Shown here: piece after piece, positions 475 through 17,047 of the stretch
Layout of the letters: each line of letters begins with the position of its first letter
Numbering within the stretch: position 1 is the first letter of the stretch
Source: a virus
Virus record (IMG/VR): IMGVR_UViG_3300035191_000049
DNA length: 18,800 nt
Strand: one strand, 5' to 3'
Translations under genes and position numbers: made by a program
Notes under the pieces: generated by a model
Databases searched by the model: none
The model's input: the letters and a program-made list of their open reading frames with translations, nothing else
What the model was told of the DNA's origin: nothing

Positions 475-538
475 TGTTTGGGGATGATTATTGAGTGCCG
501 TCCCCGAACACTTTTTCCACAAGCTGCCAACCCATGGG

Positions 539-641
539 TGGACCTGGCGGGAATCGAACCCGCGTCCACGCACAGTCCATTCGTAGGCTCTACGTGCGTA
601 GCCCTGCTTCAATACGACCGGTAGACCAGCAAGGCAGGTCG
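539..641 (-). tRNA. tRNA-like element, atypical (about 103 nt): canonical T-arm and 6/7-bp acceptor pairing but an unresolved, over-long body
   Basis: A perfect T-arm (GCGGG-TTCGATT-CCCGC) sits at 547-563 next to the acceptor 3' strand at 540-546. The only complementary 5' acceptor strand lies at 635-641, with a C-C mismatch at 1-72. The roughly 70 nt in between contain several hairpins (CGTAG/CTACG and CCTGC/GCAGG) but no clean D-arm or anticodon-arm solution. Confidence 0.3.
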
Positions 642-949
642 TACCCGGAAGATGTCCACTCTCTATCTCGTCAGCCCCGAGCGAGCGGAGACTTGAAAGC
701 TGACCAGCCACTAAATGACGTCCCATCCCGAGTCGCGGCACCTCAGGTGGAACGGAAGCTTACGCCGCCCTCGCGAGCGGTGCTTCATGGTAGTTATCGG
801 TGTTGACAACTGATTTTTTGCCTCCCGTTTTGACGGGCAAGGAGACATCTCCGGCACGCTCCTACGTACTTCATGTACCTGTCGAAACCAAATCAGGCCC
901 ATGCGGGCCACCCCTGCGTCCTCCTTGCGAAGGATAGCTGGGAGCCCTA

Positions 950-1127: not shown

Positions 1128-1132
1128 AACAG

Positions 1133-1217
1133 CGGAAGCCGAGGGACTTGAACCCCACCCCTTTTGAGAGCGCACCGCTTTCCAAGCGGGCATGGCACCC
1201 TGGCCATTTCAGCTTCC
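1133..1217 (-). tRNA. tRNA-Ser (anticodon GGA), type II
   Basis: Acceptor GGAAGCT/GGCTTCC with one G-U pair. The T-arm TTCAAGT motif is identical to the neighbouring Ser gene. Anticodon stem CCGC/GCGG with loop TTGGAAA. Length is 85 nt. Confidence 0.55.
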
Positions 1218-1974: not shown

Positions 1975-2049
1975 TGGTGGGCCAGATCGGAATCGAACCG
2001 ATATCTGCCGCATTTTCAGTGCGGGCTCTTACCAATTGAGTACTGACCC
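1975..2049 (-). tRNA. tRNA-Phe (anticodon GAA), CCA encoded
   Basis: Acceptor GGGTCAG/CTGGCCC with one G-U pair, followed by ACCA. D-arm CTCA-ATTGGTA-AGAG. Anticodon stem CCGCA/TGCGG with loop CTGAAAA, matching the canonical Phe loop. T-arm ATCGG-TTCGATT-CCGAT. Confidence 0.8.
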
Positions 2050-2138
2050 AAAAGAGTGGTGAATCACCTTGCTTCCTTCCGGACCTGGGGCAACTCACCA
2101 CCCCACAAAAAGGGGGTCAGCATGGCTGGCGACCATAC

Positions 2139-2881: not shown

Positions 2882-2904
2882 CTGCTTTCTCCTCCAAAAA
2901 CGTC

Positions 2905-2939
2905 AAAAGCCGCCTCGGTTGACCCGGGGCGGCTTTTTT
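2905..2939. terminator. bidirectional rho-independent terminator (AAAA-GCCGCCTCGG-TTGAC-CCGGGGCGGC-TTTTTT)
   Basis: A 10-bp GC-rich stem (one G-U pair) with a 5-nt loop. A T6 run follows it on the plus strand. On the minus strand TTTTGACGTTTTT follows it. It sits between the 50-aa ORF and tRNA-Lys(TTT). Confidence 0.75.
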
Positions 2940-2959
2940 CGCGTCATATGCGCTTCAGC

Positions 2960-3112
2960 CTACCCCGGGGGACCCTCCTGAAGCGCGACGTTGGTATCAA
3001 TGGCAAATGGCGTACAGGAGGGCCGTTCCAAGCATGACGGGTGATTCAACGACCACCCGCTACGCTTGAGCAGCTCCCTTGTTGTCAGATAGCTTTTGCC
3101 GCCTTTTTCCAT
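2960..3112 (-). CDS. small ORF (50 aa, MEKGGKSYLTTRELLKRSGWSLNHPS...), possible HTH-like regulator, or else the body of an sRNA
   Basis: It lies entirely between the predicted promoter (3165-3192) and the terminator (2905-2939). An AGGA motif precedes the ATG but with only 2 nt of spacing. The LTTRELLKRSGWS segment resembles a helix-turn-helix turn. It is below the 60-aa cutoff of the ORF track. Confidence 0.3.
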   Translation of the reverse strand: MEKGGKSYLTTRELLKRSGWSLNHPSCLERPSCTPFAIDTNVALQEGPPG

Positions 3113-3163
3113 GATCCTGGTTTCTGTTTCGATACTCTCCGGGCCTTTCTCTAGCCCATGTAA

Positions 3164-3175
3164 AGTAGCATATGC
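3164..3175. promoter_or_regulatory. perfect 12-bp palindrome TAGCATATGCTA (copy 1), operator-like
   Basis: The identical 12-mer recurs at 16451-16462, also inside a minus-strand promoter. A chance recurrence of a 12-mer within 18.8 kb is very unlikely. Confidence 0.55.
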
Positions 3176-3192
3176 TATCCACAGAGCGTGTC
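3165..3192 (-). promoter_or_regulatory. sigma70-like promoter on the minus strand: -35 TTGACA (3187-3192), 16-nt spacer, -10 TATGCT (3165-3170)
   Basis: The hexamers were read from the reverse complement. The -10 lies inside the palindrome TAGCATATGCTA (3164-3175). The predicted TSS is near 3157 and would drive the 50-aa ORF/sRNA unit, with possible read-through into the tRNA array. Confidence 0.45.
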
Positions 3193-3225
3193 AACAAGAA
3201 AATGCTTGACAGCCCAAACTTTTTC

Positions 3226-3615
3226 CTATGCGGCCGTTTTCTTTGAGGGTTTTTTCTGACTGTTCAGCAGCTCAACAGTCGCAACGTACTCTCTCTCGAA
3301 GTCCTCAGGACTAAGAACCCAAGCGATCTCCATATCATGCAAGAGATACCCCCCCTCGGGGACATCATGAGCAGCGCAGCCGTCACCCTCTGGGACACCC
3401 AGGAGTCTTAAAGGGATATCCATCTTAAAGGCGCGCACCGACTCTCCCGTTTTCCTGGAGACGTACCAGGACCAGGGCAGCTCTTCAAAAACCATCGGCT
3501 CCTGCCGATAGTTGCGATTTTCCAGCGGAACCGACTCAGGCTCCGTGTACTCTCGACGCCCGTCGTAGACAGTCAAGCCGAAGAGCCTTCTGAATGACAT
3601 TCCAAGCTCGTACAT
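3226..3615 (-). CDS. hypothetical protein (129 aa)
   Basis: ORF-track ORF. Its start lies 1 nt after the stop of the methyltransferase gene. No motif recognised. Confidence 0.5.
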   Translation of the reverse strand: MYELGMSFRRLFGLTVYDGRREYTEPESVPLENRNYRQEPMVFEELPWSWYVSRKTGESVRAFKMDIPLRLLGVPEGDGCAAHDVPEGGYLLHDMEIAWVLSPEDFEREYVATVELLNSQKKPSKKTAA

Positions 3616-3616
3616 A

Positions 3617-4309
3617 TCAGAACCCCGTTTCCATTGCCTCTCGACTCTGCTTCCTAAATCTCACAACAAACTGCAATCCGGCTTTATCGATTGGCTGCCT
3701 GGTGTACGCTTTCAGGTATGTCGAGCATACAAATTCAACTGCCAAGCCAAGCTTCCTTGCCAGCGACACGAAAAACCCCGCGGGGAACCTTGCCCCGTTG
3801 AGTTCCCCGTCTCTCCAGGGATGCATTCCACTGGTTGTGTGCTCACCGTTCAACGACTCGTTGTAAGTAGAGAAGTAAACTCCATTTTCAGCCATACGAC
3901 CAAACACAGCGCCCAGGCATGCTTCAACCTGAGAGGGCGTCATATGCGTCATGACCGAGTGAGACCAGGCGAAGTCAAACCGAATCCCCTCGGGCAACAA
4001 AGAAAGATCAAAATCCGTCGACTGAAAAAGAGTAGCTTTCTTATCAACCAGGCCCTGAAGGACGATCTCTTCGCGAGCTGCAGACAGGACGTGTTCGTTG
4101 TGATCAAGGCCAAAATAGTGTCCAGGCTCCAAGTAGTCGATGAAAAAACGTCCAGCCCGCAGTGCCCCACAGCCCACCTCAAGCATGTAGTGGGAAGGAA
4201 CAAGACCATGAGCTTTGGCAAATTCAAATAGAAGCTCTCCATCCTCCCAGGTTTCACAGCCGTGGATTTCTTTTGTACGCCACCACTTATCGCTCGTCGG
4301 CTTAGTCAT
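3617..4309 (-). CDS. class I SAM-dependent methyltransferase
   Basis: Rossmann motif I YMLEVGCGALRAG followed by an acidic residue. A GAGGGG Shine-Dalgarno site lies about 9 nt upstream. This segment has lower GC (about 50%) than the rest of the window. Confidence 0.65.
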   Translation of the reverse strand: MTKPTSDKWWRTKEIHGCETWEDGELLFEFAKAHGLVPSHYMLEVGCGALRAGRFFIDYLEPGHYFGLDHNEHVLSAAREEIVLQGLVDKKATLFQSTDFDLSLLPEGIRFDFAWSHSVMTHMTPSQVEACLGAVFGRMAENGVYFSTYNESLNGEHTTSGMHPWRDGELNGARFPAGFFVSLARKLGLAVEFVCSTYLKAYTRQPIDKAGLQFVVRFRKQSREAMETGF

Positions 4310-4381
4310 TAACTCAAACCCCTCAGCAACCCAACGCGGTTAGTGCCTGCCAAATGACAAGACTTACCAAAATCCCAATAA

Positions 4382-4618
4382 TCACCGCGAGGATAGACCC
4401 CAATCGTCCCTCACCCCCTCCACCTCTGCCCCGGTACATACCACCCTCGCCACAAAGACCATCACCATCCAGGTAAAAATGATCACTGCTAGCCACAGTA
4501 AAAATCCCAGAGTAGCGCTCCGGACCAACTCCAAAGCACCCTCCTTCTTTCTCTGTTGCATGATGCTCGTGTTTAGCACGTTCATCCTGCAGAAGTCATG
4601 TTCGCTGCGTTTAGCCAA
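4382..4618 (-). CDS. small membrane protein (one TM helix, LGFLLWLAVIIFTWMVMVFVA)
   Basis: ORF-track ORF with a hydrophobic core. The true start may be the internal Met at 4585. Confidence 0.35.
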   Translation of the reverse strand: MAKRSEHDFCRMNVLNTSIMQQRKKEGALELVRSATLGFLLWLAVIIFTWMVMVFVARVVCTGAEVEGVRDDWGLSSR

Positions 4619-5312
4619 CTCTCAGCTTTGCCACACCCCAAGCGTGGTCGTAAATGTGCATCCCCTTGCAACTCCAGATGATTTCACCGGCCGTGACGGT
4701 AACGTCATCAGTACTGATGCACTCGGCCATATACTCCTGCATGAGCCTCACAGCGGCGATATTCGCCGGGAAGCCGTTCCAGAGGTCATTCGACCTGATG
4801 TAGACGAAGAAGTGCAACTCGGGCTCTTCTCCCTCTCGGAGCCCTGATGGGGAGAAAATTCTGGTGTCAATTTGTCGCAGACAGGGCGGGTCATCCAGCG
4901 TTATGTCTTCAGGACGGGCGACAGCAATGCACTCCTGGTTGGAGCCGAAACCGTTTCTGCGGTAGCGGTTGATGATGGCCTCCATCTGGGGAGCCACTCG
5001 CTCGCCATAGGTGTACAGCTCATTTTCCTTGAGAGGCTGGTCTGTCATTAAATAGGGAAGGTACTCCTCTATATATTCCATGGTCGTTGGAGGAGGCACG
5101 TGTGAGAGGTGCTGAGGCATCTCAGGAACGAGGGGGCGCACGCCTGGGTGGGTGACCCGTATCTCCACCCAGTCAAGCTCCCAGCGCTTCTGGCCCTCAT
5201 AGGAACCATGATCAACGACCCACTGTCGCCCATGGGTAAGAACTGCATCGACGGTTTGAAACCAGGCATCGGGCAGGTCCCTGGCTTTGATGTGAATTGG
5301 CTTCAAGGACAT
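4611..5312 (-). CDS. thymidylate synthase-fold enzyme (ThyA/dUMP hydroxymethylase family), divergent
   Basis: Aligns by eye to ThyA core motifs: YTYGERV (compare pVYGkQWR), DDPPCL (catalytic Cys of LAPCH), FVYIRSNDLWNGFPANIAA (compare QLYQRSCDVFLGLPFNIAS, Asn retained), and IIWSCKGMHIYDHAW (compare fVWTGGDTHLYSNH). The ATG at 5312 overlaps the upstream stop as TGATG. Confidence 0.75.
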   Translation of the reverse strand: MSLKPIHIKARDLPDAWFQTVDAVLTHGRQWVVDHGSYEGQKRWELDWVEIRVTHPGVRPLVPEMPQHLSHVPPPTTMEYIEEYLPYLMTDQPLKENELYTYGERVAPQMEAIINRYRRNGFGSNQECIAVARPEDITLDDPPCLRQIDTRIFSPSGLREGEEPELHFFVYIRSNDLWNGFPANIAAVRLMQEYMAECISTDDVTVTAGEIIWSCKGMHIYDHAWGVAKLRVG

Positions 5313-5533
5313 CAACTTTTCTCCTGGGGTCCTACCCCAGCGAGTGGCATCACGTCGATGTACAACCCACGCCAGCCACCTTCAAGCATTTGTCGAACAA
5401 AATAAACGTCCTGAGGATTACCTATCCATACAAAAACCTTCTTGCCGCCGTAAGCCACTCGGACGTCCTTTATCCCATGCACCTTGGTGAGGTGCCCATA
5501 CACAGCTTCAACGATCCCGTCGAAGCGCCTCAT
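5312..5533 (-). CDS. hypothetical protein (73 aa)
   Basis: ORF-track ORF. It is coupled by ATGA and TGATG overlaps to both neighbouring genes. Confidence 0.45.
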   Translation of the reverse strand: MRRFDGIVEAVYGHLTKVHGIKDVRVAYGGKKVFVWIGNPQDVYFVRQMLEGGWRGLYIDVMPLAGVGPQEKS

Positions 5534-6171
5534 GCTTCAGAAACAATGTTTCCTTCGCTGAGCTTCATCACCAGATCGTACTCCGACAGGTCGTCAGGAG
5601 ACGCAATCGCCACTCCATCGCCAACTCGGACGATCGGTATCCACGAAGCACAGCAACCACAGACGATCCGGAGCTGGTCACGGTCGTCACCCTCGAAGTT
5701 GTCGTCCTTTAGACGGGCGAACGTAATGTTTCCAGAGAATCTCGGGTTGTCGTCGTTTCCACCCATTGCGTCGCCACAGACAGGACATGGGCTGTCGAGA
5801 ATGCCGTTTTTAATGAGGTCCGCGATCATCTCCCAGGCCCGACGATCCACGACTAGGTTTGTCGCGAAGAGTGTGTGAGAGTGGAGCCTGTGAGCCTCCT
5901 CGATGGTCATTACATCTGTGGAGAGCGGGGCAAGCTTTGCGAGCTGTTTATGCAACCAACAATGCTGCCCCAGCGCAAGGTCCAACTCACCAACCAAGCG
6001 ATAGGACATGCTTCTTTCACTGAGCTTTTGAAAACAATCAGCGCAGAAACCGATAGGCCTCTCATGATCCGCATAGACGACAGTGACTCTCTCCCAAGGA
6101 GGCTCTTTTTCGCAATCTCGCTGCAAACCACACCCAAGGCAACGCTCCAATATTCGGACAACTTTCGGCAT
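5530..6171 (-). CDS. Cys-rich (Zn-ribbon-like) hypothetical protein
   Basis: Multiple CxxC pairs (CLGCG, CADC, CPVCGD, CGCC). A strong AGGAGG Shine-Dalgarno site precedes it. Confidence 0.55.
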   Translation of the reverse strand: MPKVVRILERCLGCGLQRDCEKEPPWERVTVVYADHERPIGFCADCFQKLSERSMSYRLVGELDLALGQHCWLHKQLAKLAPLSTDVMTIEEAHRLHSHTLFATNLVVDRRAWEMIADLIKNGILDSPCPVCGDAMGGNDDNPRFSGNITFARLKDDNFEGDDRDQLRIVCGCCASWIPIVRVGDGVAIASPDDLSEYDLVMKLSEGNIVSEA

Positions 6172-6681
6172 CTAATCCTCCTGCTCGATCACCTGAGGAG
6201 CAGGAGGAAGAAGAGCCGTCGCGCTGTTGTTCAGGATCTCCGGGAGTCGAGGACCGATGGCCTCGGCGACGGTACGTCCATCGCTACCGACGAGCCATGG
6301 CAGGAAGAGCTGCTCGGGCGTGATGATGCCGTTCTCGATGGCCTCGAAGGCGCCCTTGAGAAAAATGCTCAGCACGCGGTGCTCTCGCCATCCTCGGGAC
6401 GCCTTGAGACGCTTGAACTTGTCCGGGAGCAAGGTCCCGTGCCGCCTGTGCTTGGCCTCCTCCTTGAGCTTTTCGTCATCAGGTAGGGCGACGTTCATGC
6501 GCGCGTGGTAGCTGACACCTTCATGCTGCCAGACGAACTCCAGCATAACCCTGTAGTTCTCGAAATTTTCCGACCACCGAATCCCGGTTACGCCCCACAA
6601 ACGGAGCAGGTCGGTGATTTCCTCCCTGGACTCACCTGGCGGGACTACCGTGTTCTCGGCATACTTCCTCTTCTTGGGCAT
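6172..6681 (-). CDS. hypothetical protein (169 aa), basic N-terminus
   Basis: ORF-track ORF with a GGAG Shine-Dalgarno site 6 nt upstream. It overlaps the 3' end of the radical SAM gene by about 50 nt. Confidence 0.5.
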   Translation of the reverse strand: MPKKRKYAENTVVPPGESREEITDLLRLWGVTGIRWSENFENYRVMLEFVWQHEGVSYHARMNVALPDDEKLKEEAKHRRHGTLLPDKFKRLKASRGWREHRVLSIFLKGAFEAIENGIITPEQLFLPWLVGSDGRTVAEAIGPRLPEILNNSATALLPPAPQVIEQED

Positions 6682-7420
6682 CTTTCTCTCCGATTGCTTT
6701 GAGATGAAGGGGGCTCAGGTTCGAGTTGAGCCCACAACGGTTGCACTTCATGGTTTTGAGATTGCGCTCAATGGTCAGGACGTCATCGTGGACAGTCCCG
6801 ATTGAGTGGCAGGTGTCGGCCTCGCCAGTAACGATGGTGCCGTCGACGTTGACAGCCGGGCTGCAATGTTTCCCCATCTGCTCGATCGCCCTGATGCCAC
6901 CAGCAAGGCCACCAGTGCTCCTCGTCGCGCTTCTCAGATTGAAGCACGTAGGACTGATACGGGTGGGCTTGATACGATTCTCTTTCGTCCTGCGACAGGG
7001 AAAAATAACGCGGAGGTTCGACTCGAAGCTGACTCCAGGGATACGTCGAAACTTTTCCCTGGCGAGGATCTTCGGATAGTAGCGCGGATCGTTCGTCACC
7101 TGGATGGGCAGCTCCAACTCGCGAGCGAGCTTCACTTTCTCCGGATCATCGATCCATGAGCCGTTCGTTGTGATGAGCGTGGCCTGGTGATAGACGTGAA
7201 ACTTGTCGAGTCGCCTCAAATGGCCTGCCATCTCTTCGAGCTTCGGATGCTCGAAGGGCTCTCCTCCGGTGAGTAGAATGACCTTGGCGGCGACACTCTG
7301 AGCAAAATCGACAGCGGCCTTAAACGTCTCCATAGTCATGTGCTCGCCATCTGGACCTGAGGAATCGACCATGCAGTGCTTGCACCCCATGGTGCAGCAA
7401 TTCGTGACACGGATCAGCAT
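6632..7420 (-). CDS. radical SAM enzyme, QueE/NrdG/PflA-like (paralog 1)
   Basis: N-terminal CTMGCKHC (Cx3Cx2C) and LTGGEPFEHP (GGEP SAM-binding motif). C-terminal extra Cys pairs, ending in CNRCGL. A GAGGGGG Shine-Dalgarno site is present. Parallel in sequence to the gene at 10111-10929. Confidence 0.75.
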   Translation of the reverse strand: MLIRVTNCCTMGCKHCMVDSSGPDGEHMTMETFKAAVDFAQSVAAKVILLTGGEPFEHPKLEEMAGHLRRLDKFHVYHQATLITTNGSWIDDPEKVKLARELELPIQVTNDPRYYPKILAREKFRRIPGVSFESNLRVIFPCRRTKENRIKPTRISPTCFNLRSATRSTGGLAGGIRAIEQMGKHCSPAVNVDGTIVTGEADTCHSIGTVHDDVLTIERNLKTMKCNRCGLNSNLSPLHLKAIGEKDAQEEEVCREHGSPAR

Positions 7421-8715
7421 TGCTCGACCCCCTCAGTAGGCTCCTCTTCTTCAGGAGGTAGTAGCGCTTTCCAGCGGTCTTCCTTGAATCGATGATCGGT
7501 GGCGTAAGGGATGTAACGCACCAGGCCTGCATCGATAAGCCTTTGAAGAATGCCGTTCATGTACTTTACGGCCTCGTTGTGATCGTCGGGCAGTGAGCCT
7601 ATCCGGTTGAGGATCGAGTAGATGTCGTAGTCGCGCCACATGCGCTTTCCGCCCAAATCCCTGAGCATGAGGCCGTGCAACTCTTTCATGAGGGGGGTAA
7701 GCGGCTGCTGTTCGAAGGTGGCGTCCCTGTGAATAAAGGTTGGGTACTGACAGTTGTTGATTTCGACGCAGACCGGGCACTCGTCTGCTGCCTCCCGGAT
7801 ATCCTCATCCGTCATCGATATCATCCTGTGACTGTCACGTGCCGCGAACAGGAGCTGGTTGAGCGTCCAGGGAAGGAGCTTTCCTTCTTCGTCTTTGTTC
7901 GTGAGGAGCAGCTCGCCGATCGTCTTGGCGAGAGCCTCCTTTTTGCCTGGCTCCTTCTCCTCGGGACCCCCCACCTCGATGTCCATTTCTTCCAATCCGT
8001 TGTCTGCCACGCAGTAGACGTGGTCAGAGGTGTTTCCGAGACGGCTCTTGACGACTACTTCAACAGACATAAGAGCCTCAAGCTGCTGCTCGACGAGTTC
8101 GATATCGATCTCTGGGTGTACCTCTTTGAGCCCGTGCTCGATCTCCTCCGCGGACCAAACCGCGCTCATGCCGTCCTTCTTGGTCCCTGCCTTGACCATG
8201 AGCTTGACGATGTTGACGGCAATCGGAGGCCACGTAGCCTCCGGAATATTGACGGACAGCTCTGGCTCGTTTTCGCCGTCATTAGACGAGTGGCAGCAAT
8301 TCTCATCCTCACCGATCGCGGCCACATCATTATCCGGCTCGGGCTTCTGTTCAGGTTTCTGGAACGGCCGCATGTGCATGTCGGGCTGCTCGAACTTCTT
8401 GTCTTCGTTAACGATTGCGTCGCGAAGATCGCAGGTCAGGCGAAATGCTTCTTCAGCGACCCATGTCGCCTCCTCCCCCATTTCTTCGTTCTTTGTCATC
8501 TGGACGTTCAGCGACCAGCCCGAGATGAGCTTGGCGACCATCATGAGGATGCGAGAATTCTCTTCGACGCGAGCCACCTCTTTCGCAGCGTTGACGATGT
8601 CCGAGACACTGCCCTCGGTAGAACGAAGATACTTCTTTCGCACCCTTCCAAGCTCCTCAGCGGCCTCCTTCATCTCTGCGATCAAGTTTCTGATTTTGGG
8701 TTCGTCGGACATCAT
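7414..8715 (-). CDS. hypothetical acidic protein (433 aa)
   Basis: ORF-track ORF with balanced composition. The antisense plus-strand ORF 7675..8901 is Leu/Arg-rich and was judged spurious. A GGGGTGA Shine-Dalgarno site is present. Confidence 0.55.
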   Translation of the reverse strand: MMSDEPKIRNLIAEMKEAAEELGRVRKKYLRSTEGSVSDIVNAAKEVARVEENSRILMMVAKLISGWSLNVQMTKNEEMGEEATWVAEEAFRLTCDLRDAIVNEDKKFEQPDMHMRPFQKPEQKPEPDNDVAAIGEDENCCHSSNDGENEPELSVNIPEATWPPIAVNIVKLMVKAGTKKDGMSAVWSAEEIEHGLKEVHPEIDIELVEQQLEALMSVEVVVKSRLGNTSDHVYCVADNGLEEMDIEVGGPEEKEPGKKEALAKTIGELLLTNKDEEGKLLPWTLNQLLFAARDSHRMISMTDEDIREAADECPVCVEINNCQYPTFIHRDATFEQQPLTPLMKELHGLMLRDLGGKRMWRDYDIYSILNRIGSLPDDHNEAVKYMNGILQRLIDAGLVRYIPYATDHRFKEDRWKALLPPEEEEPTEGVEQC

Positions 8716-9137
8716 TCACCCCGCTTGAGAGAAAAACCTTTCAGGACACCCACGTCATCGCCAGCGGCCTCACAGGTGACCTCTGTGACCTGGATCGAGC
8801 CGAGCAGCCATCGTCCTGGCATCCGAATCATGTGCCTCAGCGCGTCCAGCTTCTTGTTGAGAAATTCCTTCAGTGATCCGCCGACATCCTCCTGGGAGTA
8901 GCGAGCCACCTCTTCTTTATCTTGCCACCAGCCGGGGTCAGGCTCGTGGCCAGGGAGCTGCCAAACGTTCTCGTCTGGACGGAAGGCCAGACTGAAGAAA
9001 GCGTCGGGGTACATTTCCAACAGCTTGTGCGTTGGAGGTCCCCACTCTTTGTCGTCCTCAGGATGTTCTTCTTTGTAGACCTCAAGAAGAGGACGAATCT
9101 TTCCGCCTCGCCGAATACGCAAAAAGCCTGGCATCAT
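8712..9137 (-). CDS. hypothetical protein (141 aa)
   Basis: ORF 8712..9266 trimmed to the internal MMPGF start (9137). A GAGGA Shine-Dalgarno site lies 5 nt upstream. This avoids a 94-nt overlap with the upstream gene. Confidence 0.5.
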   Translation of the reverse strand: MMPGFLRIRRGGKIRPLLEVYKEEHPEDDKEWGPPTHKLLEMYPDAFFSLAFRPDENVWQLPGHEPDPGWWQDKEEVARYSQEDVGGSLKEFLNKKLDALRHMIRMPGRWLLGSIQVTEVTCEAAGDDVGVLKGFSLKRGE

Positions 9138-9171
9138 GTATTCCTCGGGAATCACAGCAACGACGAGAGCG

Positions 9172-9717
9172 TCACCCACTTGCGCCTCCCTGTGCCCACC
9201 GTTCGAAGTCGACCTCTCGCATGTGACCGCTCTTCTTAAAGATGGGAAAAAGACCCATGGGTCCATCGGGCGGAAACATCTCGGCGTCCTTGCCCATGAC
9301 GGGCTCGAAGTTGCAGCCCTGAAGGATCAGGGCCACAAACTCAGAACAGGAGACCTTGTTGTGATTGATGATGGGGTTGAACCACTCGACTCCCGTCACC
9401 TTGTAGAGCGCAAGGAGGATGCCGTTCAGGATGACGGCCTTGAAATCGTATTTCTTGTTAACGTAGTTACGCGCCTTTCGCATCCCCTCCTCGATATCCA
9501 GTCCGACGACCTCGAAGCACATCCAGTCGTCGTAGTTTTTTTTGAGAAGCTCGACTCGCTGGGGAATGACGCCGTCGGAAATAGCATGGGTGACCCACTG
9601 GCCTCCCCACACCGGATCCGTGTAACCCACCCAGGCGTGGTTCCAGTTACCTCCCGTCGCCTTGCGAATGAGCCAACCGAGAAAGTTGTTCGACCTGCTG
9701 AATCCAACGACAATCAT
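9172..9717 (-). CDS. permuted papain-fold enzyme (LRAT-like / NlpC-P60 superfamily), thiol hydrolase or acyltransferase
   Basis: A His-containing segment (NWNHAWVGY) lies N-terminal to a Cys box (SCSEFV, compare LRAT NCEHF). That is the permuted order. The start at 9717 forms an ATGA overlap with the SLOG gene's stop. Confidence 0.5.
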   Translation of the reverse strand: MIVVGFSRSNNFLGWLIRKATGGNWNHAWVGYTDPVWGGQWVTHAISDGVIPQRVELLKKNYDDWMCFEVVGLDIEEGMRKARNYVNKKYDFKAVILNGILLALYKVTGVEWFNPIINHNKVSCSEFVALILQGCNFEPVMGKDAEMFPPDGPMGLFPIFKKSGHMREVDFERWAQGGASG

Positions 9718-10190
9718 CTCAGCCTCTTGAAGATTTCCATGCACCGGAACTTTGCTGTCTCCTGAGCACCTGGAAATCCACTCTCACGGGGGCCGGCGAC
9801 GTTGATGACCTCAAAGTTGGTTAGCAGCGAGGCAAGGTGGTCGTAGCCATCGCTCTCGTTGGGAAACATGTGCAGCTCGTTGATGATGTCGAACCAGGGC
9901 TTTTCCAGTTTGCGGCACAAGCGCACCGTGAGAGCTGTTCCCGTCGAATCAGGGATGCTGGGACAGAGGATGAGAGTCGCGTCCGAGTCCCGGACGTTCC
10001 ACTCCGTGCGCTGAGGATAGTTCGACGTCGGCGCCTCCTGGAGCCTGCGGTATTTCTGGGGGATCTTGCCGTCCTCAGCTCGACGTCCCAGGGGACACCA
10101 GCCCCCTATCTCAATGCCCAGCTTCAGCGCCGCATCGAGACCACCTCGATCGACCCCTGTCTGACCGCCTGATATGACTTTTTTCAACAT
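9714..10190 (-). CDS. SLOG-superfamily protein ('putative molybdenum-carrier'/YpsA-like)
   Basis: The N-terminus ISGGQTGVDRGGLDAALKLGIEIGGWCPLGRRAEDG matches the signature start of the MoCo-carrier-like SLOG family. Downstream TEWNVRDSDATLIL follows. Confidence 0.6.
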   Translation of the reverse strand: MLKKVISGGQTGVDRGGLDAALKLGIEIGGWCPLGRRAEDGKIPQKYRRLQEAPTSNYPQRTEWNVRDSDATLILCPSIPDSTGTALTVRLCRKLEKPWFDIINELHMFPNESDGYDHLASLLTNFEVINVAGPRESGFPGAQETAKFRCMEIFKRLR

Positions 10191-10929
10191 CCTTCAACCC
10201 GCACTTTCCGCAGGGGAGTATTGTTCGTATTCTCTCCATCGCCGCCCTTGACGCCGATTTCCAGTCGGCGCGCAGCTCATCGATCGTCGTCACCTTCATG
10301 CAGCAATCAAGCGGCCCCATTCGGACCTCTCCCCCGGGATGCACGTGAATGCTGCACGTTCCGTCCAACGCTTCCCACATGCGAACGAACGACCGGAAGT
10401 TTGCATCGCCTGCTCCGCGCTTCAATAGTCTGTTCGCGTGCACGCAGTAGCGATTCTTTTCTCTGATTTTCGTTCCAGGAGGAGGTTTCCAGCCGCGCCT
10501 TTTCGCCTTCTCTCCGACGTATATTGAACTTAGATAGCTGATAACCTTCACGTTCTTCAACGCTCGCAGCTCATCAACGAAGTCGAGCTGCGGATAGAAC
10601 CGAAAGTCAGCGGTCACCTGGAATGCGACAGGCGCCAAGGACTTGATCTCTGCGAGGCGCCCTCTGAGCAGGGCGCCACTCGTCCCGACCCTCACGATAA
10701 AACCATGCTCCAGCGCAGCGTCACGAAGGGTCTTCACGACTTCCCAAAAAAGCGGATGTTCGAGCGGCTCGCCACCAGCTATGCCCAGGTCGTTCGAGCC
10801 GATCTTTTTGAAGACGCGAAGCGTTTCTTCGAGCGTCTCCTTGCTCATGTGCTCGGCACCGGGACCGGTCTTCGACACCAGGCAGTGATCACAATCGAGG
10901 GAGCACCGATATGTGAGCATGATGACCAT
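10111..10929 (-). CDS. radical SAM enzyme, QueE/NrdG/PflA-like (paralog 2)
   Basis: CSLDCDHC (Cx3Cx2C) and IAGGEPLEHP. C-terminal Cys pairs, ending in CGKCGL. Same architecture as the gene at 6632-7420. Confidence 0.75.
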   Translation of the reverse strand: MVIMLTYRCSLDCDHCLVSKTGPGAEHMSKETLEETLRVFKKIGSNDLGIAGGEPLEHPLFWEVVKTLRDAALEHGFIVRVGTSGALLRGRLAEIKSLAPVAFQVTADFRFYPQLDFVDELRALKNVKVISYLSSIYVGEKAKRRGWKPPPGTKIREKNRYCVHANRLLKRGAGDANFRSFVRMWEALDGTCSIHVHPGGEVRMGPLDCCMKVTTIDELRADWKSASRAAMERIRTILPCGKCGLKDVEKSHIRRSDRGRSRWSRCGAEAGH

Positions 10930-10935
10930 AAGCCA

Positions 10936-11268
10936 TCAACGACCCTTCTTAGTCTTTGTATTCGACTTGCCACCAGGCCATCGGTCGGCCTTCCCTCGTC
11001 CGACGTGAAAGCTCTCGCCATCCTTCGCGGCGTGCTTCACAAACTGAGCGAGTTCTGGGTCTTTTTCGAGTAACCTCATGTACTGACGCGCCGCTTCATC
11101 AATAGCCGCGTCAGCGCCATTCAATCCCGTGTAGCCATTCTGTAATGCGGCCACCCCTTCATGCGGCGAGCACCCCGGTGCTTTAATCCGGACATCGTAC
11201 TCGTCGACCAATCCCGCGTGCCCCCCCGTCACCGTCAGACGAACCTCCCCACTGAACCTCTTCGGCAT
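10936..11268 (-). CDS. hypothetical protein (110 aa)
   Basis: ORF-track ORF. No family recognised. The GLVDEYD segment is only vaguely dUTPase-like. Confidence 0.45.
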   Translation of the reverse strand: MPKRFSGEVRLTVTGGHAGLVDEYDVRIKAPGCSPHEGVAALQNGYTGLNGADAAIDEAARQYMRLLEKDPELAQFVKHAAKDGESFHVGRGKADRWPGGKSNTKTKKGR

Positions 11269-11681
11269 TACTTTTCCCTCCGAACCCTTCCTTGCTTGAT
11301 CGCTGACCGAAAAAGCCCTTCTACATGCTTTCCCAGATCGATCTGGCTCACCCCCAGCACAGTGTTTGTCATGGCCGCGGTGGTTATCTCATCGATGAAT
11401 TCAGGGTCGATGTCCCAGCCCTCATCGTTGACGCACAGCTCGTCCCCCTCGAAGTAGAACTCCGGGATGTCATCGGCAGTGTGGTCAAATTGAAGTTCAA
11501 GGCCGCTGTCGGGACCGGTCCCGTTTGCGTTGACCACCAAGGGGTCAATCGCTTGCGGCATGTGCTTCTGGATCTCTTCCATCTGCTCGATTATTTCCAA
11601 AGCGCGCCCGACAGCCCCCTGTCGTAGCGACGCCTTCACCTTCTCCAGCTCTGCCCAGAAATCGACGTCTTCCTGTTTCAT
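11268..11681 (-). CDS. hypothetical acidic protein
   Basis: ORF 11268..11705 trimmed to the Met at 11681, which overlaps the upstream stop by 1 nt. Confidence 0.45.
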   Translation of the reverse strand: MKQEDVDFWAELEKVKASLRQGAVGRALEIIEQMEEIQKHMPQAIDPLVVNANGTGPDSGLELQFDHTADDIPEFYFEGDELCVNDEGWDIDPEFIDEITTAAMTNTVLGVSQIDLGKHVEGLFRSAIKQGRVRREK

Positions 11682-12100
11682 CAATCCAACCCTGCCACCT
11701 GACACGACAGCTCGTCGAGCTGCTTCTGCATGTCATCGACGCGATCCTCCAGCTCCGTCACCCTCGCCGCCAAGCTTTTGGCGAAGCGCTCGGTGTGCTT
11801 CACGCAGAGAGCGGTAAACTTCCCGCCGTCAACGATTATGCTGTTCTCATCGACGAATCCTGGCTGCACCCCCTCGACTTCCTGATTGAACACAGACGTC
11901 GCGAAGTTCCAGCAGCCGTCGACATCGCAGGTACACGGGATTGCCTCTACGCCGCGCATGTTCTTGAGCTTGTGACGATCGCGATACTGCTTGCGCGCCT
12001 CAGCTTTCTCGTAACGTCCGGCTGGGAAAAATAGATTGGACATCCCCTTCTTCCACACTCGCCAGTAGATGTGCGGCTGTCCGTTTTTATCAACACCCAT
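11681..12100 (-). CDS. hypothetical protein with C-terminal coiled-coil
   Basis: ORF 11681..12256 trimmed to the internal Met (MGVDKNGQPHIYW...). The N-terminal extension is Ser/Thr-rich, low-complexity, and overlaps the upstream gene. Confidence 0.45.
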   Translation of the reverse strand: MGVDKNGQPHIYWRVWKKGMSNLFFPAGRYEKAEARKQYRDRHKLKNMRGVEAIPCTCDVDGCWNFATSVFNQEVEGVQPGFVDENSIIVDGGKFTALCVKHTERFAKSLAARVTELEDRVDDMQKQLDELSCQVAGLD

Positions 12101-12488
12101 TTCTCTTCTCCCGGTCCAGGTAGTAACCCATGGGGTGACCATGAACCTCCTTAAAACGCTCTTTCGAGATTTCGTGACGCCGCATGAGGCACTCGTCGCA
12201 GATGGGCTCGTACTTGTAGAGCATGTCCCCGTCGTCAGCCCAGTCGATGTAACCATGCCACAGCACCCACGAGCGCTCTGCGGCCGTCGCGCGACAGAGG
12301 GCGCACTGCATACCGACCATACCCTTCAGGCCATGTAGCTTTCTGACGTCGCCACAGCCCCTACAGGTCATGAGTCTGGGGTTGACCCACTTCTTCTCGT
12401 GAATGCACTTCTCGCAGCCCTCGACCATGCACTCGAAGCAACCCCCGACCTCGACGTTCTCAGCGCCACATGCTCTACACTTCGGCAT
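12090..12488 (-). CDS. Cys-rich Zn-finger protein (132 aa)
   Basis: Five CxxC pairs (CRACG, CFEC, CEKC, CRGCG, CDEC). Confidence 0.5.
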   Translation of the reverse strand: MPKCRACGAENVEVGGCFECMVEGCEKCIHEKKWVNPRLMTCRGCGDVRKLHGLKGMVGMQCALCRATAAERSWVLWHGYIDWADDGDMLYKYEPICDECLMRRHEISKERFKEVHGHPMGYYLDREKRNGC

Positions 12489-13532
12489 CTATAGACGCCT
12501 CATCTCGAACTGGAGCGAACGGATCTTTTGGAGCAGCCCATCAACGCCCTGGAATATTTTCCTAACGCGATCCCTTGTCGTCTTTGGCCAGTTGTCCTTG
12601 TCATCGATACTGCCGAGCACTTTATTGGCCTCAAATTCCAGCTCGTCAACGGCTTGGACGGCATCAAACACATCGAACATTTTTTTCTTCTCGGGCACGA
12701 CGGACATGACGACCACATCTTTGGGAATGCTGTAGATCGGGCCACGAAGGATGTAGGCAACCTTCATCCTCAGGACGTTCCCAGTGTATCCCTGGTCAGG
12801 AGGACCAAAGTAGGTCTCGTCAGCCGTTACACCGGCACCTGTCGTCCCTGGGTTCCACTCCTTCAGAACGAGAATGTCGCCCTTCTCGAAGTCACGATCG
12901 TTCTTGCGAACGTCGAAGGTCTTCTCACCCGACTTCATTGCGCGGAATTCGGCTGGCCACGTCTTCAACTCGTGCTCGACGGGCTCACGCTTTTCATGTC
13001 GGCGCCTGAACATCTCCAGCGTCTTGTCAGGAGCACCTACTAAAACATTTCGATCGCCCACTGGATAGACACGTTCTGGATCCGCGCCCATCAGCTCCAC
13101 CGTCTCCTCGACGGAGATTGAGTCGGGCACTGGATCGCTAAACGGAGGCGACGCAGGATAGTCACCGCCGAGCCGCTCCATGAAGCCTACATCCAGCGGG
13201 GCGTCATCACCTTCTTCTTCATGCTTCAAGAGAGCGTCGATCTCTTCCTTCTGTCGCTGCTTCTCGGCCTCGTAGTCGCGGTCCCACTGGGCCAGTTGCT
13301 CTTTCGTGGCAGGCATGTGCTCGCCAGGCTTTCGACAAGCCTCTGGGTCATCGACAAGATGCGGCTCTTGACACCAACCGGAATTCTTTTCTCGCTCGAC
13401 TAGCCCCTTAAAAACAGGGCATTCAGACGTTTCCTTGGTCACTTCTATCGATTCATATTTGCAGCCGTGGACGGGGCAGCAGTGTGTAATGTGGACCCCC
13501 CAGCCCTCCGGTAGTTCTTCTTCGGACATCAT
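12489..13532 (-). CDS. ASCH/DUF3850 (PUA-like) domain protein with Cys/His-rich N-terminus
   Basis: The C-terminal KTWPAEFRAMKSGEKTFDVRKNDRDFEKGDILVLKEW...GYTGNVLRMKVAYI matches the DUF3850/ASCH signature. The N-terminus HCCPVHGC...ECPVFKG is a metal-binding cluster. Confidence 0.6.
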   Translation of the reverse strand: MMSEEELPEGWGVHITHCCPVHGCKYESIEVTKETSECPVFKGLVEREKNSGWCQEPHLVDDPEACRKPGEHMPATKEQLAQWDRDYEAEKQRQKEEIDALLKHEEEGDDAPLDVGFMERLGGDYPASPPFSDPVPDSISVEETVELMGADPERVYPVGDRNVLVGAPDKTLEMFRRRHEKREPVEHELKTWPAEFRAMKSGEKTFDVRKNDRDFEKGDILVLKEWNPGTTGAGVTADETYFGPPDQGYTGNVLRMKVAYILRGPIYSIPKDVVVMSVVPEKKKMFDVFDAVQAVDELEFEANKVLGSIDDKDNWPKTTRDRVRKIFQGVDGLLQKIRSLQFEMRRL

Positions 13533-14137
13533 TCTTCTCCGGGTAAAAAATCCTCTTTTCTGAAGATGGACCAGAGCTGCAGCCCGTTCTCACGGAGCAG
13601 CTCCTCTCCGCCTTCCTGACGGTCGACGACGGCGAGGACGCCCACGACGTTGAGATTCTCCTCGCGAAGCGTCTCGACCGCCTTGAGCGACGAGCCACCG
13701 GACGTGACGACGTCCTCGATGGCAAGGACGCGGCAATCGTTCGAGACCATCCGCTCTCCGTCGAGATCGTAGAGACCCTCGACAGACTGCTTGCGCCCGT
13801 GGCCCTTCTTGTCCAGACGAGGTATGAGCCATGGGATCTTCTTCGCGAAGGGTCCGCCGACGCCCATCAGTCGCGCAACGAGCAGGAGACCTCCCAGCGG
13901 CACAGGAGCGAGCGCCCAGTTCACCCCCGACGGTGTGACGCAGTCCAGGCCGAAGTGGAGAGCGCCCCCGAGGTGCTCACCCACCGAGGGGTGGCAGGCA
14001 GCCAGACGGCAGTCGACGTAGAACTTACTTTTTCGCCCCGAGGCGAGCGTCAGCTCCCTCTCCGTCGAGACCGCGTTGTTCAGCATCGCGTCCTTCAGAC
14101 GCCTCCAAACACGGATCTTCATGATCTCTTCGCGCAT
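13529..14137 (-). CDS. type I phosphoribosyltransferase, orotate-PRTase (PyrE) family
   Basis: LASGRKSKFYVDCR (compare PyrE LKSGRKSPYFF). The PRPP motif VLAIEDVVTSGGS. VVDRQEGG (compare PyrE LDRQERG). The start is ambiguous between 14086, 14137 and 14164. Confidence 0.7.
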   Translation of the reverse strand: MREEIMKIRVWRRLKDAMLNNAVSTERELTLASGRKSKFYVDCRLAACHPSVGEHLGGALHFGLDCVTPSGVNWALAPVPLGGLLLVARLMGVGGPFAKKIPWLIPRLDKKGHGRKQSVEGLYDLDGERMVSNDCRVLAIEDVVTSGGSSLKAVETLREENLNVVGVLAVVDRQEGGEELLRENGLQLWSIFRKEDFLPGEE

Positions 14138-14453
14138 CGACTCCGGGGTCTCCATCGTGCTCATATCTCTCCTCGTCTAGCATCGCGTCGAGCATCTCGG
14201 CCTCGGCGTCCACCGCCTTGCGAGAGCTGCTGTCCGCGAGCTTCTTCCTGATCCCCCTGGCAATCGTCGCCGGGTTGCCGCCCATGTTGAAATGAAACCC
14301 ACTCGCACCCCATGAGACGTAAAGGCGCAGGCCGGGGATGAGACGGATCGAGGTCCCGATCCGTGGGTTCAGCATTCTTGCTGCCGCCTTGGTCGTCTTG
14401 GAGACAATTTTTTTATTGAGTGGCTTACTAGCTAGGGACTTCTGGGATGGCAT
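14025..14453 (-). CDS. possible hypothetical protein overlapping the PRTase 5' end
   Basis: The N-terminal 80 aa have a protein-like frame. The C-terminus is charged and low-complexity. It overlaps the PRTase start by at least 60 nt. The call is uncertain. Confidence 0.2.
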   Translation of the reverse strand: MPSQKSLASKPLNKKIVSKTTKAAARMLNPRIGTSIRLIPGLRLYVSWGASGFHFNMGGNPATIARGIRKKLADSSSRKAVDAEAEMLDAMLDEERYEHDGDPGVDARRDHEDPCLEASEGRDAEQRGLDGEGADARLGAKK

Positions 14454-15531
14454 TATAAAACTCCCCTCCCAGCATCTTCCCGGTTTTTTTCTTACCAAGA
14501 AGATACATCTCTTCGAGATGGGGACCCTTTCCGTTCTTGCGCCCAGGATAAACATCAGGTTCCCACTGGCCATCTGATGTCAATGAACCGAACCGAGACG
14601 TGACGATGTCCGGCCCATAAAAACCACGAGACTTGACAATGTGGCCGTACTCGGAGCCGGCGATCCAGGCACCCCACTGTTTGAAGAAAAAACTGACGTG
14701 CGACTTCTCGCACTGCTCTTTGATGTCGTGGACCCACCGGGGGTGCATGGGACGAGCACCAGGGCCACTCTCTCCGCCCACGATCACCCACTGGATGCCG
14801 CGGTCACGAGCTGCCCAATACTTGAAGTCGTCCCACTCTCCCGGATTGGCGATTGGGTATGTAGCGTCCTCTTCTACCTCGCCGATCCCTGGCATCCGTA
14901 GCTTGACCGGCCCGAGCAGCGGTTCGAGGGAGAGGAATCGAATTCGAGCCGGCACCCTGAGCAGGTGGGGGATGCGCAGGTCGGCTGCTTCCTGATTTTC
15001 GACGGAGACGCCGCACCAGATGTGAGGAGGGAGCCACGCCTTTCTGACACGAGCATCGCGCTCTTCGATCTCGTCGAGCCCAACACAGATCTCGACAGGA
15101 CCCTTGGGCTCGTAGGGCGTGACCCATTTCTGAACGTACTTCGCCATGCGCTCGGGGCGCTTGGTCAGGATGAGATAGACGTGATGGTCGGCCTCGAACA
15201 TCATTTCGAAGACCTTGTCGATCCACTCGTCTGGCACCGATTGATGGAACAGGTCGCCCATCAGGCAGATAGCGATGCGGCGAGAGCGGGTCCACCGATT
15301 CGGCTTCTCCAGCTCCTTCTCGAAGAGCTTGGCCTGACCGGTCCAATTGCCGTCTTTAGTCAGCCCGTGAAAGTGCTCTCCAGGCTTCGAAAAACGCGCT
15401 GCCTGACGTTCGGCCCAGCAGTTATCACAACCGCCGAGGTTGTTGTAGAATTCCTCCTCGTCTTCGTGTGAACAGCCCTTCACAGGGTTGAGCGTCGCGT
15501 CGACGTATTCTATTTTTGTCCGATCGCCCAT
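14428..15531 (-). CDS. phage Gp37/Gp68 family protein (DUF5131), three-Cys motif
   Basis: The N-terminus DRTKIEYVDATLNPVKGC...GGCDNCWAE matches the family signature (tkIeWt..wNp..GC...GCdnCYA). The start is set at the Met that overlaps the upstream stop as TGATG. Confidence 0.6.
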   Translation of the reverse strand: MGDRTKIEYVDATLNPVKGCSHEDEEEFYNNLGGCDNCWAERQAARFSKPGEHFHGLTKDGNWTGQAKLFEKELEKPNRWTRSRRIAICLMGDLFHQSVPDEWIDKVFEMMFEADHHVYLILTKRPERMAKYVQKWVTPYEPKGPVEICVGLDEIEERDARVRKAWLPPHIWCGVSVENQEAADLRIPHLLRVPARIRFLSLEPLLGPVKLRMPGIGEVEEDATYPIANPGEWDDFKYWAARDRGIQWVIVGGESGPGARPMHPRWVHDIKEQCEKSHVSFFFKQWGAWIAGSEYGHIVKSRGFYGPDIVTSRFGSLTSDGQWEPDVYPGRKNGKGPHLEEMYLLGKKKTGKMLGGEFYNAIPEVPS

Positions 15532-16070
15532 CAGGCTGCGTTCTTCTTCCTGGGCCAGAGCTTGTCCTTTGCCCACCGCACCAAACCGCCATGCTCCGGG
15601 GCGTAGGCTTCCATTTCCCCAGAAAGACGGTTCTTATGCATCAGAAAGCACCAGTTCGACCCGCTTTTTCCGATGGCATTACCCTTTAGGAGAAGGAATG
15701 TCTCGTGGACGAGTCCCTCCTTCACTACCTCCGCCCTCTGGACAGAAAGGATTGGAAGGGGGCACTGGTCGAAAAGGCGTTCCCGGCCAACGCCAGGGAA
15801 TACCTCGACGATGCCAGGCTTGCGGATGTAGGCGGTGCCCTCAAATCCATCTTCGAGAACAAACTCATACTGACCCGGACGTACCTTGGGCAGCTTCACG
15901 TGGTCGCCGCTATAGTCGATGCGTTTGGCCAGATAGAGAGCCTCAAAGACGTCGTCGGCGAAGCACACGACTGAACGATAGCGATCAAACGCCCTAAACA
16001 CTGAGACCATATCAGCAACACTGACCCTCATCTCAGGCAGAGGGTGCCTTCCGTCGTCAATGGTGACCAT
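15531..16070 (-). CDS. hypothetical protein (179 aa)
   Basis: ORF-track ORF. A GGAG Shine-Dalgarno site lies 7 nt upstream. Confidence 0.5.
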   Translation of the reverse strand: MVTIDDGRHPLPEMRVSVADMVSVFRAFDRYRSVVCFADDVFEALYLAKRIDYSGDHVKLPKVRPGQYEFVLEDGFEGTAYIRKPGIVEVFPGVGRERLFDQCPLPILSVQRAEVVKEGLVHETFLLLKGNAIGKSGSNWCFLMHKNRLSGEMEAYAPEHGGLVRWAKDKLWPRKKNAA

Positions 16071-16073
16071 CGC

Positions 16074-16202
16074 TCATCTCCATAACGCGTGAGACGGTGG
16101 CTCAGGCAAGCAACTGTAGAGAACCCAAGTAACAAGCGACACGATGAGCACCCAGAGAAAGACGTATAAGACGACTCGCTTTGCGAACCCATTGCCCCAC
16201 AT
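16074..16202 (-). CDS. small single-TM protein (42 aa, MWGNGFAKRVVLYVFLWVLIVSLVTWVLYSC...)
   Basis: Found by hand, below the ORF-track cutoff. The ATG overlaps the upstream TAA as TAATG. The stop lies 3 nt before the next gene's ATG. It fills an otherwise gene-free gap and has a clear hydrophobic helix. Confidence 0.4.
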   Translation of the reverse strand: MWGNGFAKRVVLYVFLWVLIVSLVTWVLYSCLPEPPSHALWR

Positions 16203-16438
16203 TACCCACCCGAAACCACCTGTGGCGATTCCGCCTCCACTGCCTTGTAGGCCTCAAGCAAATCGTTCATAGCGTGTGCGAGCTGCCCCCGTTGCATCGA
16301 CAGAAACGCCTTTTCCTCCTCGCTCAGATTCGTGCCGAGCGCTTGATCGATAGACTGGATGCCCATCTGAAGCTCACTGATCTTGCCTTGTGCGACCGCC
16401 AATAGTAGGCGCAATTGTGCAGGTGTCATGGTAGTCAT
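16202..16438 (-). CDS. hypothetical protein (78 aa)
   Basis: ORF-track ORF. First gene after the predicted promoter at 16445-16472. The ATG lies only about 6 nt from the -10, so the mRNA may be leaderless. Confidence 0.45.
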   Translation of the reverse strand: MTTMTPAQLRLLLAVAQGKISELQMGIQSIDQALGTNLSEEEKAFLSMQRGQLAHAMNDLLEAYKAVEAESPQVVSGG

Positions 16439-16444
16439 AATATA

Positions 16445-16472: not shown

Positions 16473-16493
16473 TTTGATGGCCCCAAAGGATGG

Positions 16494-16985: not shown

Positions 16986-17047
16986 AAATTCGCCCCAACG
17001 GACGATAATAACCTCTTAACACCGAGGATGAACAGAGAATATATTCT

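Follow-up and report, generated by a model that had tools for sequence, protein, structure and literature searches.

A bodiless tRNA-like 3' end in a phage-like tRNA array is the 3' third of a complete one-piece tmRNA gene

Positions 539 to 641 of the 18,800-nt stretch of DNA analysed here (the window) look like the end of a tRNA that lacks the rest of its structure. A sequence-only reading had described a 103-nt element in which a canonical T-arm and an acceptor pairing enclose about 70 nt with no resolvable body, and had proposed an intron-containing or degenerate tRNA, or a tRNA-like structured RNA. The question raised by the locus is which RNA this 3' end belongs to. Our analysis indicates, with little room for doubt, that 539-641 makes up the 3' third of a 365-nt one-piece tmRNA (ssrA) gene, which is complete, occupies 536-900 on the minus strand and lies within the tRNA array of a phage-like metagenomic element. 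A tmRNA on the minus strand, at 537-900, is reported by ARAGORN with the tag peptide VNTDNYHEAPLARAA followed by a stop, and the Rfam model RF00023 aligns to 536-900 with all of its 374 positions, scoring 147.5 bits (E 1.7e-58) against a gathering score of 47 bits. Of the 94 base pairs in the Rfam consensus structure, the sequence forms 77 as canonical pairs. The full RF00023 match further establishes that the gene has the standard one-piece order and is not permuted; the permuted tmRNA model RF04321 matches only partially, at 25.8 bits against a threshold of 47. Software thus recovers a clean fold at this locus with boundaries other than those first proposed, a full-length tmRNA at 536/537-900 according to both ARAGORN and Rfam.

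Read on the minus strand, the 103-nt stretch is CGACCUGCCUUGCUGGUCUACCGGUCGUAUUGAAGCAGGGCUACGCACGUAGAGCCUACGAAUGGACUGUGCGUGGAC-GCGGG-UUCGAUU-CCCGC-CAGGUCC-A, and much of what had been described in it holds. The perfect T-arm is present at 563-547 and is the true T-arm of the tmRNA, covarying in relatives; CGACCUG at 641-635 does pair at six of seven positions with CAGGUCC at 546-540; and 71 nt separate the 641-635 heptamer from the T-arm, in line with the distance given. Together, the T-arm and the existing 6/7 pairing favour a self-contained tRNA-like RNA of about 103 nt, closed by 641-635 with 546-540, whether it is taken as an intron-containing, an over-long or a degenerate tRNA, but several observations make such an RNA extremely improbable. 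The 3' acceptor strand pairs perfectly with GGGCCUG at 900-894, and because this is the real acceptor partner, the element is 365 nt long and not 103 nt. The local pairing is coincidental: a heptamer partner with at least six of seven Watson-Crick pairs appears 40-130 nt upstream in 16% of 20,000 shuffles (64% with G:U allowed), such a local partner is present in only one of nine other one-piece tmRNAs, and the 641-635 strand is already used inside the hairpin of pseudoknot 4. The bases that intervene between the two strands pair in turn with 854-883, with covariation.

The impression that the element has no body is correct for the local sequence, in which no fold resolves because about half of 539-641 has its pairing partners some 300 nt away and the remainder is pseudoknot. 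A body nevertheless exists, consisting of pseudoknot 4 and the 3' strand of helix 2, whose partner lies at 854-883. Calling the element a tRNA-like structured RNA was similarly half right: the stretch does include the 3' half of a tmRNA's tRNA-like domain, next to pseudoknot 4 and one strand of helix 2, but it belongs to a 365-nt RNA and is not self-contained. A tRNA proper, intron-containing or degenerate, did not emerge: at default settings ARAGORN makes no tRNA call in 500-700 with introns on or off, and no cloverleaf tRNA (RF00005), including intron-containing and type II forms, was found in that interval in its default and intron modes; Rfam discards lower-scoring overlapping matches of the same clan, so that a weak RF00005 match would be hidden there. 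At 60-80% of its default score ARAGORN does return marginal tRNA calls, which count in favour of a 103-nt tRNA-like RNA, but they are mutually inconsistent, one being a Ser(aga) tRNA with a 13-nt intron at 537-619 and the other an Arg(acg) tRNA at 537-636. We dropped these low-stringency calls, which disagree in length, identity and anticodon. The practical lesson is that, when a tRNA-like 3' end appears to have no body, the missing 5' acceptor strand of a tmRNA should be sought about 300-400 nt upstream.

The acceptor stem formed by the distant strands (Table 1) stacks on the T-arm and includes the pair G898:U542, which corresponds to G3:U70 and is invariant in the eight aligned tmRNAs. G3:U70 is the alanine identity element in tRNA-Ala and in tmRNA. 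The D-loop analogue region reads UGGUUUCGAC over 890-881, and its GGTTTCGAC is invariant in the alignment described below, while the anticodon arm is replaced by the long helix 2. The first-stem hairpins of pseudoknots 1 to 4 all agree with the Rfam consensus, and the second stems were judged by eye only. That of pseudoknot 1 is weak, with CGG at 853-851 meeting CCG at 836-834 in only three pairs; pseudoknot 2 would have a second stem of 5 bp between GCCGC at 739-735 and GUGGC at 711-707; and in pseudoknot 4, GCCUUGCU at 635-628 faces AGCAGGGC at 608-601 in eight pairs, a stem that is also present in the MFE fold. The 3'-terminal CCA is not fully encoded, as the DNA reads A539-C-C-C536 and the terminal A is absent. 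Many tRNA genes likewise lack an encoded CCA and receive it post-transcriptionally, and its absence is no bar to membership of the tmRNA family.

Table 1. Positions of the tmRNA parts (listed 5' to 3' along the minus strand), of neighbouring genes in the window, and of SRP-like mini-hairpins in other viral contigs
Feature	Position	Strand	Basis
Complete one-piece tmRNA (ssrA) gene	536-900	-	ARAGORN; Rfam RF00023; 77/94 pairs canonical
Acceptor stem, 5' strand GGGCCUG	894-900	-	Partner of 540-546, 7/7 pairs
D-loop analogue AUUUGGUUUC, then GAC	884-893	-	Agrees with Rfam consensus GAucuGGaUUCGAC
Helix 2 (P2), 5' strand	854-883	-	Rfam consensus pairs; covariation with 565-597
Pseudoknot 1 region	819-853	-	Hairpin 847-841 with 825-819, 7/7 paired; Rfam alignment
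Tag frame, (A)VNTDNYHEAPLARAA, stop	760-807	-	ARAGORN coding part 94-141; translation; Rfam alignment
Helix 5 hairpin, end of tag frame	764-781	-	Rfam consensus, 7/9 pairs canonical
Pseudoknot 2	705-754	-	Hairpin 754-741 with 733-719 from Rfam
Pseudoknot 3	652-704	-	Hairpin 704-696 with 678-670, 9/9 paired, Rfam; second stem ambiguous
Pseudoknot 4	598-651	-	Stem 1 651-637 with 627-615, Rfam
Helix 2, 3' strand	565-597	-	Pairs with 854-883; covariation
T-arm GCGGG-UUCGAUU-CCCGC	547-563	-	Sequence; Rfam 5/5 pairs
Acceptor 3' strand CAGGUCC (546-540), discriminator A539, C538 C537 C536	536-546	-	Sequence
Three type II tRNA-Ser (gct, cga, gga)	951-1033, 1038-1127, 1132-1217	-	ARAGORN -ps90; sub-threshold Rfam tRNA-Sec model
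Protein gene block	3226-18736	-	All genes on the same strand as the RNAs
Mini-hairpin loci in other viral contigs	L089 4320-4351 (L089/L082), L133 641-685, L107 ~101-140, L112, L142, L147, L153		

Support for this structure comes from a comparison with relatives. We aligned eight one-piece tmRNAs at 56-64% identity and took the acceptor, helix 2 and T-arm pairs from the window. Paired cells amount to 91% in this alignment, as against 74% in column shuffles and 31-45% when partners are slid by 1-3 columns, and 19 of 32 pairs have changed on both sides, a result that none of 500 shuffles equalled. The acceptor stem is nearly invariant because the sequences were retrieved via their acceptor ends, and the informative covariation is that of helix 2 and the T-arm: double-sided changes occur at 16 of 20 helix 2 pairs (854-883 with 565-597, eight sequences), and relatives show compensatory changes at three of the five T-arm pairs, of GC, CG and UA types.

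The tag reading frame consists of 15 codons and a stop, GUC AAC ACC GAU AAC UAC CAU GAA GCA CCG CUC GCG AGG GCG GCG UAA, with the resume codon GUC (Val) at 807-805 and the stop codon at 762-760, and is preceded by the A-rich leader AAAAAAUCAGUU. In the Rfam alignment GUC falls on the consensus resume codon GCa, and the valine codon is a single transition away from the usual alanine codon. A diverged relative, 64% identical and scoring 128.5 bits, lies on a 1.8-kb metagenome contig (L065) and has the tag ANSDNYEPVRLAA; its frame opens with GCC AAC AGU GAC AAC UAC, in the same register and codon for codon with that of the window at the start, and the NxDNY core of the tag is kept between the two. 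At its other end the tag of the window finishes in ARAA, with R as the antepenultimate residue, where relatives end in RLAA, RMAA or LVA.

These departures invite the reading that the tmRNA is decaying or has been diverted, so that it rescues ribosomes poorly or carries a tag unrecognised by proteases. The GUC resume codon in place of GCN, the ARAA end of the tag, the weak second stem of pseudoknot 1 and the fact that no SmpB gene was seen all speak for it. We nonetheless regard it as unlikely, as the 147.5-bit score is as high as those of the bacterial and other viral tmRNAs fetched for comparison (92-155 bits), the frame is intact with its core conserved relative to the metagenome contig, and G3:U70, the T-loop and the D-loop analogue are all intact. 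The same sequence also recurs in independent assemblies: a Logan assembly (L001, SRR11698139) holds the identical tmRNA and array, and so do JGI contigs of up to 61.6 kb (3300042731). In E. coli, mutagenesis has shown that tagging by tmRNA tolerates changes both in the identity of the resume codon and in pseudoknot 1. The tmRNA of the window is a new, divergent addition to the known tmRNA family, and its peculiarities, namely the valine resume codon, the ARAA end, the weak pseudoknot 1 stem and the unencoded terminal A, stay within that family.

Short stretches at the two ends of the gene are shared more widely than the gene itself. The exact 31-nt 3' end occurs at 23 loci in GTDB genomes, mostly of Lachnospiraceae and one of Bacteriovoracaceae; the 25-nt 3' end GGGTTCGATTCCCGCCAGGTCCACC occurs at 30 loci in IMG/VR; and the 20-nt 5' end occurs at five loci in metagenomes, two of which (L063 and L064) yielded no tmRNA by ARAGORN or Rfam. 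Across all fetched tmRNAs, full-length identity to that of the window is 56-64% at best, so none of them is a close relative. We rejected an inference of the host from the 31-nt end, because the bacterial tmRNAs that share it exactly are only 56-61% identical over their full length; the common end thus reflects conservation of the tRNA-like domain and is uninformative on the host. Exact tag-region and 5'-end patterns had no match in IMG/VR, and the neighbouring methyltransferase, used as a query there, retrieved no relatives. Among INPHARED phages, we found no near or distant DNA relatives of the tmRNA beyond its 36-nt 3' end, which is matched at 95-100% in several Xanthomonas and Stenotrophomonas phage records.

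Where integrative phages and islands use ssrA as their target, many of them carry a piece of its 3' end. A match confined to 36 nt in phage records could accordingly point to a fragment of a host ssrA 3' end kept as the remnant of an attachment site (attP), and ssrA fragments in prophages have been described (PMC9004378). Such a remnant is barely credible here, since the gene is complete, with model positions 1-374, both acceptor strands, the tag frame and all hairpins in place, and no integrase was seen near the tmRNA. The 36-nt match in Xanthomonas phage X1, the only one of these that we examined, moreover falls within a complete permuted tmRNA.

The setting of the complete tmRNA gene is a minus-strand array with 13 tRNA genes in the window. 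ARAGORN at default settings reports ten of the 13. The three type II tRNA-Ser genes of Table 1 are missed by default ARAGORN and are sub-threshold in Rfam; with tRNA-Ser(tga) at 1379-1464 they form a run of four consecutive serine isoacceptors directly upstream of the tmRNA. The 1.8-kb metagenome contig with the 64%-identical tmRNA has the gene order of the window, tRNA-Ser(tga), tRNA-Ser(cga), tmRNA and tRNA-Pro(cgg). In the Logan assembly the array extends 3 kb further, encloses an HNH endonuclease gene and reaches a total of at least 24 tRNAs; beyond window position 1 (L001 13883-14782 onward) it holds tRNAs for Tyr, His, Arg, Trp, Asp, Glu, Ile (two) and Val (two), and HNH_3 endonuclease and Methyltransf_23 genes are interspersed among the tRNAs past the window end. 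A promoter scan of the array gave one sigma-70-like site, at 3194-3167 on the minus strand upstream of the first tRNA, a hint only, given the 1.2 expected by chance, and a terminator scan of the array gave no convincing terminator between the tmRNA and its neighbours.

Beside the tRNAs, the array contains long spacers with no tRNA or Rfam call (1539-1974, 2214-2467 and 2883-3225); the open reading frames in them may be spurious, and the spacers could hold other unrecognised small RNAs. Past the part of the array that lies outside the window, at a distance of about 10 kb, a vWA_Ro60 (Ro60-like) gene is found on the 61.6-kb parent contig. Ro60-like genes are often accompanied by Y-RNA-like RNAs that mimic tRNAs.

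Protein genes follow the RNAs on the same strand (Table 1). They encode a SAM methyltransferase, a ThyA-like protein, two radical SAM proteins, a cpYpsA (SLOG) protein, a DUF3850 protein, a PRTase-like protein, a DUF5131/Gp37-Gp68 protein, a DUF7694 protein, a thymidylate kinase and an N6/N4 DNA methylase, together with several open reading frames of 130-430 aa with no family match, a content that suggests nucleotide or DNA (hyper)modification. The DUF5131/Gp37-Gp68 protein has relatives of 37-41% identity in 171 phage records, and there are PHROG matches among the neighbouring genes. We infer the phage origin of the element from this phage-like gene content, since the window has no virion gene; neither a capsid nor a terminase gene was seen in it. 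No SmpB gene was seen among the scanned open reading frames of the window or in gene lists covering about 35 kb of the parent contig, so SmpB is presumably supplied by the host.

The same lack of virion genes in the window would suit a housekeeping ssrA that is not phage-borne but belongs to a bacterial chromosome, or to a plasmid or island equipped with a tRNA array; exact-pattern searches of IMG/VR did not return the contig, and bacterial mobile elements also carry tRNA arrays. Such an origin appears quite improbable, however, for a tmRNA that lies among 24 or more tRNA genes and an HNH endonuclease gene and is flanked by genes, all on one strand, that have phage relatives (DUF5131 and nucleotide modification). 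Identity to the closest bacterial tmRNAs retrieved is only 56-61%, and the layout matches that of viral contigs in IMG/VR (L032, L036 and L058) in which tmRNAs lie inside tRNA arrays.

Also within the array, between tRNA-Gln(ttg) and tRNA-Phe, we observed a hairpin of about 59 nt (2048-2106, minus strand) with a fold z-score of -4.15. Its apex carries CAGGUCCGGAAGGAAGCA, the GGAA tetraloop and symmetric loop of domain IV of SRP (4.5S) RNA, the apex that binds Ffh. The hairpin is without the asymmetric loop and the distal helix, and RF00169 in a local search gives 28.8 bits (E 1e-4), below its gathering score of 40 because most of the SRP helix is missing. When IMG/VR was scanned with the degenerate pattern CAGGNCNGGAAGGNAGCA, 94 loci matched, many of which are chance occurrences or bacterial SRP RNAs of full size. 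At least seven, however, are hairpins of 28-50 nt on the tRNA strand, beside or between tRNA genes, in viral contigs of 41-436 kb (Table 1). In these mini-hairpins of viral arrays the apex is conserved and the flanking pairs covary. They may represent miniature SRP RNAs encoded by phages, or decoys for Ffh, and we found no description of a phage-encoded SRP RNA in the literature searched. This hairpin, with similar ones in other viral tRNA arrays, seems more interesting than the tmRNA, and we consider the locus worthwhile mainly as context, comprising a very large tRNA array, a probable nucleotide- or DNA-modification block and a mini SRP-like hairpin.

By analogy with the tmRNA family, the phage-borne tmRNA would probably share a transcript with the tRNAs beside it. 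RNase P and 3' nucleases would release it by tRNA-like processing, and its 3' end would be completed by the CCA-adding enzyme, which would have to add the terminal A because the DNA encodes ACCC. AlaRS would then charge it with alanine through G3:U70, and the charged tmRNA, together with SmpB (presumably that of the host), would enter ribosomes that have stalled on broken mRNAs and whose A site is empty. There the tmRNA would donate its alanine, translation would switch to the tag frame at GUC, and the ribosome would be freed at UAA, releasing a chain that ends in (A)VNTDNYHEAPLARAA, a C-terminal degradation tag. A phage tmRNA is usually proposed to maintain the supply of usable ribosomes during infection or to modulate proteolysis at that time (PMC9004378, PMC7162821), and a maintained supply of ribosomes would be the likely benefit to this phage as well. 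We can also imagine, as a long shot, that the more than 24 tRNAs, the tmRNA and the mini SRP hairpin form an RNA operon for the take-over of translation, in which the tag is tuned so that rescued chains of host or phage are handled differently from host-tagged ones. If so, chains bearing the tag, with its valine resume codon and PLARAA end, might escape ClpXP or reach another protease.

Compared with known systems, the window tmRNA has the overall design of the bacterial one-piece tmRNAs (RF00023, E. coli SsrA). It shares with them the 7-bp end-to-end acceptor stem with G3:U70, the UUCGAUU T-loop, a D-loop analogue of the form GG..UUCGAC, a long helix 2 instead of an anticodon arm, and an A-rich leader followed by a tag with an NxDNY core that ends in AA, a stop, helix 5 and four pseudoknot hairpins. 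It differs from them in lying on a phage-like element inside a tRNA array, in having GUC and not GCN as resume codon and ARAA and not LAA as tag end, and in leaving the terminal A unencoded; even the Lachnospiraceae and Bacteriovoracaceae tmRNAs that share its exact 31-nt 3' end stand apart in their low overall identity. With type II tRNAs, four genuine examples of which (tRNA-Ser) lie nearby at 951-1464, the 3' end has in common a T-arm and a 3' acceptor strand, but there is no anticodon arm or D-arm within 539-641, and 103 nt exceeds the length of any type II tRNA.

The permuted tmRNAs of phages (RF04321/RF01850) offer a second comparison. Two-piece tmRNAs are known from Melnitz and pelagiphages (PMC9004378), and these, Xanthomonas phage X1 and many IMG/VR contigs have the same 25-nt 3' end as the window and similar tags of the ANDN-Y/F...AA type; the viral contigs with this exact 3' end carry mostly permuted tmRNAs with ANDN...-type tags. 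The gene in the window, in contrast, is not circularly permuted. The permuted tmRNA of X1 (OQ427096.1, 200 kb) is itself unannotated: it lies at about 120.98-121.43 kb (L007 1142-1592), in a gap between hypothetical genes, scores 76.6 bits with RF04321 and has the ARAGORN tag VAANDADYSVARYA. In the related phage BUDD, the same 36-nt 3' end sits under a 'hypothetical protein' annotation.

Phage tmRNAs in general, one-piece and two-piece, are known from 402 of 18,146 phage genomes (2.3%; PMC9004378). Three were found among the first 30 mycobacteriophage genomes (PMC1475703), Stenotrophomonas phage Marzo has one together with 23 tRNAs (PMC8928761), and huge phages carry both tmRNA and SmpB (PMC7162821). 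With these and with the viral contigs L032, L058 and L054, the window shares a complete gene in a tRNA-rich genome, often within the array, and it is set apart by having no near sequence relative in INPHARED or IMG/VR. Two of these contigs, L032 (5724-6218) and L058 (2838-3332), hold unusually long one-piece tmRNAs of 495 nt in viral tRNA arrays, which ARAGORN missed and Rfam scored at only 68.5 bits, as against the compact 365 nt and 147 bits of the window tmRNA. Beside the roughly 2% of phages known to have a tmRNA, the gene described here thus takes its place as one more divergent phage-borne one-piece tmRNA.
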